NCBI GenBank assembly: GCA_009377745.1
Contig: WHTK01000003.1
Coordinates: 2,568 to 66,567 of the forward strand
DNA length: 64,000 nucleotides
Direction of reading: 5' to 3'
From: Dehalococcoidia bacterium
Lineage (GTDB): Bacteria > Chloroflexota > Dehalococcoidia > DSTF01 > WHTK01
The notes under the pieces were generated by a model. The model saw only the letters and a program-made list of their open reading frames with translations. It was not told the DNA's origin and made no database searches. Position numbers and translations under genes: made by a program. Positions 16,440-17,888 of this stretch are shown one piece after another; the stretch's first letter is position 1; every line of letters begins with the position of its first letter.

Positions 16440-17888
16440 ATGATCACGGCAGACGGCTGGCTGGACTGGGCCGCCCGCGCTCCCGGCCCGCTCGACAAGT
16501 GCTATACGGCCGTCAATCGCGGTATCGGCTACGTGCCGCACTCGGCCGTCGGTTTCTACGGCGGCTGGGCGTCGCGGCTCTTCTCCGGCGAGCGCCGTGC
16601 CGATGGCCGCTATACGGCCTACGCGGCGGCGAGCGTGCACGGCTGGGTCGCCTACGATGGCAGCGTCACGCAGCATTACCCGCTCAGCGCCAGCTGCTGG
16701 GCCAGCGGTAGCGAGTATCCAAACACGAACTTCATCGCCTTTGAGAACGAGGGCGGCTTTGATCCCGAGGACGAGCTACTGACGCCGGCCCAGGTCCAGG
16801 CCAACGCCAGGATCATCCGCGAGCTTGCCGCCTGGCGCGGATGGCCGGAAATCCGCCGTCCCCACGACGACGGCGACACGGCCGCGAGGCTCTACGAGCA
16901 CCACGAGTGCGTGCGCTGGGGCTCCGCGCCCACGGCCTGTCCCTCCCGCCGCATTCCCTGGGACAGCATTCTCGCGGCGCTTGGCGAGGGGACATCGCCG
17001 GCTCCGGCGCCCCAGCCGGCTCCGGGCCGCACAGTCATCGTCCACCTGGAGACGGGCGTCGACGCCGTGATGGACATCGATGAGTACGCGCAGGGCGTCC
17101 TGCCGTATGAGATGGGCTCCGGCTGGCCGGTGGAGGCGCTGAAGGCACAGGCAGTCGCGGCCAAGAGCTACGCGCTGGCGGCCGGAGCGGTGTTTAGCGA
17201 CACGCGCTCTCAGGTCTACGGGCCGCTGCGCTACCCGGACACGGACGCGGCCGTCGAAGCGGTGCGCGGGGTTTATCTGGCCAAAGAGGGCCAGATCGTA
17301 ATGCCGTTCTACTTCGGCCACTGCAACGGCCGCACGCGCTCGCCCGCCCAGGCCGGCTGGAACGCGGCTTCGAACCGGCCCTATCTCAAGGGGGTCGAGT
17401 GCGCCTGCGGCAACACGGCCTACTTCGGCCACGGCATCGGTATGTGCCAGCGCGGGGCGCAGACGATGGCCCTCCAGGGCTCAAGCTTCGACGAAATCCT
17501 GCGCCACTTCTATACAGGCATCGAGATACTGGGTCTGGACTCCGGCTCCGGGCCGATCCTTACGCCGGCCAACGCGACCGTCTACGTGGTGGTTGAGGGC
17601 GATACACTGCTCAGCATCGCGGTGCGCTTCGGCCTGGACTGGGGCGCGATCTACACGCCCAACCGCCACCTGATCAGCGACCCCAACGTCTTGCCCGTGG
17701 GCTGCCAGCTGGTTATCCCGCGGCCCGCCACCGAGGAGGGCCAGCCAGACGTCTACGTTGTCCAGCCGGGCGATACTCTCTTCGCGCTCTCGCGGCGCTG
17801 GGGTTGCGGGGTGGATGACATCGCGGCGGCCAATGGACTCGGCAGCGAGACGCTGATCCGGGTGGGACAGCGCCTGCGGAAGCCCTGA
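16440..17888 (+). CDS. peptidoglycan hydrolase: N-acetylmuramoyl-L-alanine amidase (Amidase_2/PGRP-like) + SpoIID/LytB domain + 2x LysM, no signal peptide
   Basis: NTNFIAFENEGG and ACPS (amidase_2). LKAQAVAAKSYAL and GHGIGMCQRGA (SpoIID). Two C-terminal LysM repeats (YVVVEGDTLLSIAVRFG, YVVQPGDTLFALSRRWG). The N-terminus is not hydrophobic. Confidence 0.75.
   Translation: MITADGWLDWAARAPGPLDKCYTAVNRGIGYVPHSAVGFYGGWASRLFSGERRADGRYTAYAAASVHGWVAYDGSVTQHYPLSASCWASGSEYPNTNFIAFENEGGFDPEDELLTPAQVQANARIIRELAAWRGWPEIRRPHDDGDTAARLYEHHECVRWGSAPTACPSRRIPWDSILAALGEGTSPAPAPQPAPGRTVIVHLETGVDAVMDIDEYAQGVLPYEMGSGWPVEALKAQAVAAKSYALAAGAVFSDTRSQVYGPLRYPDTDAAVEAVRGVYLAKEGQIVMPFYFGHCNGRTRSPAQAGWNAASNRPYLKGVECACGNTAYFGHGIGMCQRGAQTMALQGSSFDEILRHFYTGIEILGLDSGSGPILTPANATVYVVVEGDTLLSIAVRFGLDWGAIYTPNRHLISDPNVLPVGCQLVIPRPATEEGQPDVYVVQPGDTLFALSRRWGCGVDDIAAANGLGSETLIRVGQRLRKP

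Follow-up and report, generated by a model that had tools for sequence, protein, structure and literature searches.

The subject of this analysis is a predicted peptidoglycan hydrolase encoded in a stretch of 64,000 nucleotides (contig WHTK01000003.1; hereafter, the window) from a Dehalococcoidia bacterium of the phylum Chloroflexota, where it follows the genes of a contractile injection system (CIS). With moderate confidence, the protein is read here as an endolysin-like chromosomal autolysin of Chloroflexota and not as a dedicated part or cargo of the CIS. Judged from sequence comparison, it appears to belong to a small family of Chloroflexota (Dehalococcoidia type) with the build of phage endolysins, and in the data at hand its position beside the CIS is specific to this genome. 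An initial annotation had offered two functional readings, namely a CIS payload directed at the peptidoglycan of target cells, and an endolysin-like enzyme that lyses the producer and releases the particles. Both are weakly supported.

The hydrolase gene is genuine, and the three-module description of its product is confirmed. The gene and its parts are as follows:

16440..17888, plus strand: complete open reading frame (ORF) of the three-module peptidoglycan hydrolase, without leader (482 aa and stop)
16430..16436, plus strand: ribosome-binding site GGAGGAG, from sequence reading, with the GGAGG core 5 nt before the hydrolase ATG
16440..16991, plus strand: Amidase_2 domain, a zinc N-acetylmuramoyl-L-alanine amidase of the endolysin/AmpD type (residues 1-184; PF01510, Foldseek)
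17022..17543, plus strand: minimal SpoIID/LytB-type lytic transglycosylase domain (residues 195-368; PF08486, TIGR02669, Foldseek)
17574..17729, plus strand: LysM repeat 1 (residues 379-430; PF01476, model)
17745..17885, plus strand: LysM repeat 2 (residues 436-482; PF01476)

The protein is 100% identical to the NCBI entry 'SpoIID/LytB domain-containing protein [Dehalococcoidia bacterium]', and the identical protein sits on a 186-kb contig of a Dehalococcoidia metagenome-assembled genome. The GC content at third codon positions (GC3) is 0.86, as in the other real genes of the window. An in-frame stop at 16395-16397 lies 14 codons 5' of the ATG at 16440, and no ATG, GTG or TTG occurs between the two, so that a longer N-terminus is impossible.

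All domains named in the initial annotation (an amidase, a SpoIID/LytB domain and two LysM repeats) pass curated thresholds, and the predicted folds agree with them. The Pfam Amidase_2 profile (PF01510) scores 44.3 bits against a cut-off of 26 over residues 59-168, the Pfam SpoIID profile (PF08486) 55.6 bits against 23, the NCBIfam SpoIID_LytB profile (TIGR02669) 133 bits against 83.3, and the Pfam LysM profile (PF01476) is found in two copies with 79 bits against 20.9. The AlphaFold2 model, with a mean predicted local distance difference test (pLDDT) of 86, consists of four folded modules (1-184, 195-368, 379-430 and 436-482) with three disordered linkers between them. In Foldseek searches, the amidase module matches AmpD (2y28; E 2.5e-8, TM-score 0.67) and the endolysin LysCS (6srt; TM-score 0.67), and also PlyL, PlyG and T7 lysozyme. 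The SpoIID module matches 5i1t and 4rwr. Both Foldseek and phmmer connect the LysM region with 4uz2 and 4b8v, and repeat 2 is 39% identical to the Thermus thermophilus LysM 4uz2.

From their folds and conserved residues, both catalytic modules are predicted to be competent. In the amidase, H34, E104, H154, T165 and C167 are kept in at least 23 of the 26-32 sequences aligned per position; on the model of T7 lysozyme, PGRP and AmpD, we take H34, H154 and C167 to be zinc ligands and E104 and T165 to be catalytic. In the SpoIID module, E224 aligns with E101 of Clostridioides difficile SpoIID (5txu), which is the catalytic glutamate of that enzyme (PMC6934232), and it is retained in 33 of 37 relatives. 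A Cys/His cluster (C295, C321, C323, H331 and C336) is likewise conserved among relatives. The module is not a sporulation SpoIID proper: against the equivalog TIGR02870 (stage II sporulation protein D proper) the hydrolase reaches 101.9 bits, under the cut-off of 234.75, and it has neither the membrane anchor nor the complete domain of ~300 aa.

The absence of an N-terminal signal peptide or transmembrane (TM) segment, already asserted in the initial annotation, holds under three checks, namely of hydrophobicity, of the twin-arginine motif and of the modelled N-terminus. The whole protein contains no hydrophobic stretch or TM segment and no twin-arginine (RR) motif, and residues 1-35 form part of the amidase fold with a pLDDT of 91-94. 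An alternative upstream start and a cryptic signal were both rejected, as the short stretch after the upstream stop offers no start codon and the protein has no hydrophobic or RR segment. In effect, none of the features of a Sec/Tat-exported autolysin (signal peptide, signal anchor, RR motif) is present, and the cryptic Sec or Tat signal that would have spoken for an ordinary housekeeping autolysin was not found. This build extends to the family. Each of the ~50 relatives inspected opens directly with its catalytic module and has no leader; apparent N-terminal extensions occur in P0012, P0019 and P0056 only, and none of these holds a hydrophobic stretch.

The combination of modules is rare, as the initial annotation had supposed when it called the amidase and SpoIID fusion uncommon. 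Among 1.84 billion cluster representatives, only one matches the full span of the protein (1-482), which confines the three-module fusion to a single 50%-identity cluster, and both catalytic domains occur together in ~eleven 90%-identity clusters. The family includes several architectures: Amidase_2 with SpoIID and LysM, SpoIID with LysM, Amidase_2 with LysM, M23 with SpoIID and LysM, and amidases with other tails. In P0039, P0040 and P0042, an M23 endopeptidase stands in place of the amidase. Taken together, the Amidase_2 and M23 sister architectures would cover both activities of SpoIIP.

The relationship to phages is partial. Relatives of the amidase module with 50-56% identity are encoded in two IMG/VR contigs (L027 and L028), together with RusA, a methylase and genes with PHROG matches only, and in one database relative a fusion to a terminase fragment is seen. 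A profile search found no relative of the SpoIID and LysM part in IMG/VR viral contigs, and matches to GenBank phages are confined to the C-terminal part with the LysM repeats (query residues 291-480). Viral-contig scans with the whole hydrolase protein and with the profile of the N-domain, the N-terminal domain shared by four membrane proteins of this locus (A to D, introduced below), gave no match. The hydrolase has the build of an endolysin, with no leader, with catalytic modules at the N-terminus and with wall-binding modules at the C-terminus. No phage or prophage lysis cassette with a holin was found around it, its neighbours being CIS, membrane-protein and polysaccharide genes. On sequence grounds, the family is thus endolysin-like in build and partly in ancestry, and now resides mostly at ordinary chromosomal loci.

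The second line of evidence is the conservation of the link between hydrolase and CIS, which was followed in both directions. Nine other hydrolase-family loci are informative (L002-L006, L008-L010 and L026), to which the annotated contig of P0005 is added. A CIS structural gene or an N-domain gene is found in the available flanks of none of the nine, and none is present on the P0005 contig. Homologues unlinked to CIS, which the initial annotation had named as evidence that would speak against it, are therefore what the family presents. The closest relative, P0002 in L026, is 78% identical to the hydrolase and its flanks are unrelated to the window. At L006 the neighbours are an acyl-CoA dehydrogenase and sugar-nucleotide genes, at L008 an ABC/FtsX transporter and a hydantoinase, and at L010 a small zincin, a flavin adenine dinucleotide (FAD) oxidase and a Rieske protein. 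At L005 (65% identity) and L009, a FemAB gene lies immediately upstream of the hydrolase. These two loci hold an orthologous FemAB-hydrolase pair (L005 358-3062 and L009 7349-9439), the FemAB proteins being 63% identical, and the SpoIID module is present in the hydrolase of L005 and absent in that of L009. This means that the gain or loss of the module took place in situ, at a conserved chromosomal position beside a gene of wall synthesis.

Seen from the CIS side, none of the 14 related CIS loci (L012-L025), eight of which reach 7-10 kb past the last N-domain gene, contains a tblastn match to the hydrolase or a profile match to an amidase, SpoIID or LysM domain. A scan of a genome collection with the single hydrolase protein returned two loci only. 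The initial annotation had suggested a search for the same fusion near CIS loci of related genomes; hydrolase modules are absent from these CIS loci, and CIS genes from the nine hydrolase loci.

Several features of the hydrolase loci are recorded in their own right. L004 (71% identity; 7064-11172, minus strand) and the P0005 contig (70%) carry full-length hydrolase homologues, whose neighbours are a DUF7379 protein and a caspase-like protease (CHAT). This setting may be another cell-death-related neighbourhood, and the two contigs are syntenic and so count as one independent observation. In L010, a stand-alone 127-aa PF13699 (eCIS_core/DUF4157) zincin with an HELKH motif (1356-1739, plus strand) lies directly 5' of the SpoIID and LysM relative. 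This eCIS_core match near P0025 was considered as a sign of a CIS and discarded, since L010 has no CIS genes and the protein is a lone 127-aa HExxH zincin beside the FAD oxidase and the Rieske protein. A prophage setting of the amidase-only relative in L003 was likewise dismissed, the neighbours being LytR-CpsA-Psr and metabolic genes. A conserved upstream partner was sought and rejected as well: the 340-aa gene 5' of P0004 is unrelated to D, the gene that precedes the hydrolase in the window, and the flanks of P0002 are unrelated.

The CIS locus and the genes that separate it from the hydrolase are listed below, all but the first and the last two belonging to, or closing, a membrane module that accompanies the CIS:

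395-10083, plus strand: CIS structural genes (Pfam: cap, sheath, tube, VgrG-like spike, gp25, baseplate J, P2_I-like)
10181-10486, plus strand: small protein with three TM segments (101 aa), in the CIS-lineage membrane module, missed by ORF lists with long length cut-offs
10499-11284, plus strand: polytopic protein with C-terminal HExxH, membrane module
11292-11990, plus strand: A, N-domain paralogue with C-terminal PG_binding_1, membrane module
12074-13021, plus strand: B, N-domain paralogue, membrane module
13028-13510, plus strand: signal-anchored protein (160 aa), membrane module
13514-14287, minus strand: polytopic protein (257 aa), GC3 0.95, closing the conserved block in most related loci
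14318-15109, minus strand: C, polytopic N-domain paralogue, GC3 0.87, divergent from D
15370..16356, plus strand: D, N-domain paralogue with one TM helix and a unique ectodomain, probable operon partner of the hydrolase

The structural block consists of a Pvc16-like cap, sheath, tube, a Pro/Ala-rich ORF, tube-initiator, VgrG-like spike, a PAAR-like ORF, gp25, baseplate J and a P2_I-like gene, and the structural block with the membrane module shows synteny in L012-L025. The sheath is nearest to that of the Streptomyces coelicolor system CIS-Sc (8bky/9gtp; 358 bits), the next-best system being the Anabaena thylakoid CIS with 179 bits. Chloroflexota CIS have been grouped with the Streptomyces system in lineage IId and have been observed as free cytoplasmic particles (PMC12998442). 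The Streptomyces CIS was not detected in the medium under the conditions tested; CIS-Sc triggers cell death, for which lysis through envelope-targeting effectors has been proposed, and Streptomyces ghost cells retain a mostly intact wall (PMC10066040).

The initial placement of the hydrolase next to the CIS locus is correct physically, as the CIS genes and the membrane module precede it; the gene stands outside the structural operon. The last baseplate gene lies 6.4 kb upstream of it, and two minus-strand genes (13514-14287 and 14318-15109, their strand supported by GC3 and by an independent gene call) lie between the CIS block and the D-hydrolase pair, which places the hydrolase outside that operon. 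D and the hydrolase share one strand and are separated by 83 bp. The promoter and terminator scan found no terminator-like site in this gap and nothing above chance near the hydrolase; a promoter-like site was found upstream of C, at 15263-15235 on the minus strand. A stretch of 16 nt with one mismatch is common to 10420-10435, inside the small 3-TM gene, and to 16381-16396, in the D-hydrolase spacer, where it overlaps a short inverted repeat (CTGGC...GCCAG). It was considered as a regulatory motif shared by the CIS and the D-hydrolase pair and set aside, as it is the only such near-match, lies within the 3-TM coding sequence and is probably due to chance. The small 3-TM ORF at 10181-10486 was also considered as a hydrolase-specific holin and rejected, because it is kept in CIS loci that have no hydrolase. 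A PHROGs scan of eight neighbouring genes returned no phage family except the matches of A's wall-binding domain to endolysin families.

Two minor observations concern the CIS block itself. The tube-initiator and a LysM motif form a single 255-aa ORF in L013, and in the window they are divided between 3901-4455 and ~4451-4634 (plus strand), in different frames with an ATGA overlap, the second ORF holding the LysM motif; a genuine split, a frameshift and an assembly error are all conceivable explanations. Between tube and tube-initiator lies the Pro/Ala-rich ORF (2798-3901, plus strand; 367 aa, GC1 0.80, GC3 0.72), which is probably disordered and has no sequence match in the related CIS loci, where an unannotated gene occupies the equivalent position.

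Common to proteins A-D is a leaderless domain of ~110 aa at the N-terminus (the N-domain), with 37-57% pairwise identity, D being 39-57% identical to the other three. The N-domain is followed by TM helices and then by C-termini unrelated to each other. In the model of D, residues 8-120 form an immunoglobulin-like sandwich of the PapD/MSP type (pLDDT ~97), a TM helix spans 131-153, and the C-terminal ectodomain has a pLDDT <50. Some relatives carry a C-terminal PG_binding_1 or PASTA domain, which argues that the N-terminus lies inside the cell and the C-terminus outside. A profile search for the N-domain found 58 proteins among 5.8 billion, all of <=213 aa, a number that may underestimate the family, since A-D of the window were not returned even though the hydrolase of the same contig is in that database. 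At all 13 loci with enough flank, an N-domain gene stands beside a syntenic CIS; the fourteenth, L016, spans 1 kb, a flank too short to judge. This strict linkage elsewhere identifies D as a true CIS-family gene, and the D-hydrolase arrangement is the only evidence that connects the hydrolase to the CIS. As a separate observation, L015 (1-13184) is rearranged: its CIS operon lies on the opposite strand and the N-domain gene, still CIS-linked, stands past the cap end and not after the P2_I-like gene.

By analogy, A-D are candidate effectors or membrane adaptors of the Chloroflexota CIS. The S. coelicolor proteins Sco4256-4258 each contain one TM helix; their N-termini are closely alike, and their carbohydrate-binding C-termini vary (PMC10066040). 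A-D, and not the hydrolase, resemble them in the shared N-terminus, the TM segment, the variable wall- or carbohydrate-binding ectodomain and the position beside the baseplate genes of a lineage-IId-like CIS. Their topology is also like that of the adaptor CisA of S. coelicolor (PMC12237407). The N-domain differs from the largely disordered N-terminus of CisA in being a folded Ig-like sandwich; no close cisA homologue has been reported for Chloroflexota CIS. Among the listed matches of the N-domain profile, most of which are without an organism name, none is named Streptomyces. The hydrolase has no counterpart in the Streptomyces CIS cluster as described.

Under the favoured reading as an endolysin-like autolysin, the LysM repeats would hold the enzyme on the glycan, judging from what is known of the family. 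The Amidase_2 module would then strip stem peptides from N-acetylmuramic acid, and the SpoIID-type module would finally cut the bare glycan as a lytic transglycosylase. This sequence of steps would place in one polypeptide the SpoIIP-then-SpoIID order of sporulation engulfment, where SpoIID requires the 'denuded' product of an amidase or endopeptidase (PMC6934232). Since no export signal is present, the wall would most likely be reached only when the cytoplasmic membrane is breached, as with endolysins, and such access points to an enzyme of lysis or autolysis rather than of growth.

Several points weigh against this reading. D belongs to a CIS-linked family and lies close by on the same strand, which means that the local linkage of hydrolase and CIS does not look random. 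This CIS has a single close relative, L019 (86-90% identity), whose sequence stops within gene A, so that the comparison covers no immediate-lineage locus past A. The neighbours of the family members include no conserved holin or other protein for breaching the membrane, which would have explained access to the wall in genomes without a CIS. Moreover, ~80 central residues of the canonical SpoIID are absent, the alignment with 4rwr skipping chain residues 195 to 279, and the enzyme activities and their order are inferred.

The first of these points leads to an alternative in which the CIS takes part. The D-hydrolase operon may have joined the CIS locus as a locally recruited lysis partner, with CIS firing acting as the holin and the hydrolase as the endolysin; we regard this as unlikely, although it deserves to be kept in view. 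In detail, the CIS would fire into the membrane of its own producer, aided by A-D, and the lesion would admit the cytoplasmic hydrolase to the wall. The CIS-specific N-domain of D, a codirectional gene just 5' of the hydrolase and not separated from it by any terminator-like site, is consistent with it, and so are the similarity of the sheath to CIS-Sc (358 against 179 bits for the next system), the killing by CIS-Sc with its proposed envelope-targeting effectors, the likeness of Sco4256-4258 to A-D (PMC10066040) and the leaderless, endolysin-like build of the hydrolase. It is opposed by the lack of conservation, as 0/14 related CIS loci have a peptidoglycan-hydrolase module, 0/9 other hydrolase loci have CIS or N-domain genes, and the flanks of the closest homologue (78% identity) are unrelated. 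Additionally, the mostly intact wall of Streptomyces ghost cells indicates that wall degradation is not needed there (PMC10066040), and the co-transcription of D and the hydrolase is presumed from gene order. The stronger form of this idea, a two-part self-lysis device in which the CIS with the wall-binding A-D would breach the membrane and the pre-made hydrolase would dismantle the wall, is doubtful to a slightly greater degree; in this device the D-hydrolase operon would have been added recently, converting death by the CIS into complete lysis. As for an endolysin that serves particle release, as in the initial annotation, the sheath is nearest to a cytoplasmic CIS, that of Streptomyces, and hydrolase modules are missing from all of the related CIS loci, both of which argue against it.

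Peptidoglycan hydrolases are common among effectors of type VI secretion systems. This, the physical nearness of the CIS and the absence of an export signal would all suit a hydrolase that is loaded in or on the CIS and delivered against the peptidoglycan of a target cell. Such a payload is nevertheless very improbable. No loading determinant is present: there is no fusion to a spike or PAAR protein, no N-terminal extension or packaging domain, and the profile of the A-D N-domain finds nothing in the hydrolase, whose residues 1-35 lie in the amidase fold exactly as in relatives without a CIS. No immunity candidate is encoded next door, where the beta-helix gene is convergent, with the reservation that immunity proteins have no general signature. 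Moreover, the association is unconserved in both directions, with no CIS-linked relative known from the loci compared, and the CIS lineage is cytoplasmic (PMC12998442). A quite different possibility is a non-lytic role in the cytoplasm, either in regulating precursor synthesis like mycobacterial CwlM or in recycling anhydro-muropeptides like AmpD. The lack of an export signal fits here too, as do the cytoplasmic AmpD being the best structural match of the amidase module, the location of two family members directly 3' of genes for cytoplasmic FemAB proteins, and the precedent of CwlM, a cytoplasmic amidase homologue with wall-binding repeats (PMC4946905). This role is also improbable, if less so than that of a payload, because both enzyme modules keep full catalytic sets, the polymeric glycan that LysM and SpoIID require is not present in the cytoplasm, the TM-score to endolysin amidases equals that to AmpD (0.67), and the phage relatives of the amidase suggest lysis.

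Chloroflexota are not known as endospore formers, and the window gives no indication of a sporulation context. The nearest functional model of the hydrolase is nonetheless the SpoIIP-SpoIID engulfment pair (the DMP machine), which uses the same two-step chemistry, a denuded glycan being cut by SpoIID (PMC6934232), and which has the catalytic glutamate in common with it (E101 of C. difficile SpoIID, E224 here). In contrast to that pair, the hydrolase fuses both activities, its amidase is of the Amidase_2 type and not of the SpoIIP fold, and its SpoIID module is minimal, with ~80 residues fewer and no membrane anchor. A SpoIID-family domain is also paired with an amidase in Bacillus subtilis, where LytB stimulates the amidase LytC (PMC6934232, PMC10653849). 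LytB itself does not hydrolyse peptidoglycan and the two proteins are secreted separately, whereas the hydrolase keeps the glutamate and is fused and leaderless.

Phage endolysins with Amidase_2 and LysM domains resemble the hydrolase in the missing leader, in N-terminal catalysis and C-terminal LysM repeats, in the shuffling of modules and in the fold shared with LysCS, PlyL and PlyG. The hydrolase differs from them in not being encoded in a phage, in having no holin neighbour and in its SpoIID module, which is absent from the viral contigs and GenBank phages searched. Chromosomal parallels also exist. CwlC and CwlH of B. subtilis are amidases of mother-cell lysis; they bear wall-binding repeats, have no known signal peptide and act at the death of the producer. 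They are listed as sigK-dependent amidases (PMC10653849). Unlike the hydrolase, each has only one catalytic module and forms part of the sporulation programme. In the R/F-pyocin locus of Pseudomonas aeruginosa, the genes of a phage-tail-like particle are accompanied by that of a leaderless endolysin, which lyses the producer; the locus conserves both holin and endolysin, and the particles are released. The hydrolase differs from that cassette in lacking a conserved association with its CIS, which is of a cytoplasmic type.

All modules of the hydrolase are known, and their three-module combination is a rare variant that is mechanistically sensible. It represents a natural 'Rosetta-stone' fusion of activities that are divided between SpoIIP and SpoIID in sporulating Firmicutes, and it speaks for a general dependence of SpoIID-type transglycosylases on earlier peptide removal. 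For biochemical study, it is predicted to offer a compact two-step wall-degrading enzyme. The whole family being leaderless and mostly at ordinary chromosomal loci also raises the question of how such enzymes are delivered to the wall in Chloroflexota. The local CIS link, if true, would provide a testable mechanism that turns CIS-induced death into lysis; given that comparative evidence shows the adjacency not to be conserved, the finding is of moderate interest. The A-D proteins are arguably a more informative lead for the biology of Chloroflexota CIS than the hydrolase.

Two further observations concern the rest of the window. The gene 3' of the hydrolase encodes the convergent beta-helix protein already mentioned, and an envelope-polysaccharide cluster (17930-34270) lies on this side, with two beta-helix proteins (one with a CAP domain), a DUF4910/M28 protein, a short-chain dehydrogenase/reductase, a DUF4012 protein, a sugar transferase, epimerases, a UDP-glucose dehydrogenase and a Wzz/tyrosine-kinase-like protein; the hydrolase lies at the border between the CIS region and this cluster. 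Farther downstream, a T-box leader (59304-59573, minus strand; Rfam RF00230, 103 bits against a gathering score of 93) presumably governs a 577-aa ORF at 57183-58916 on the same strand.

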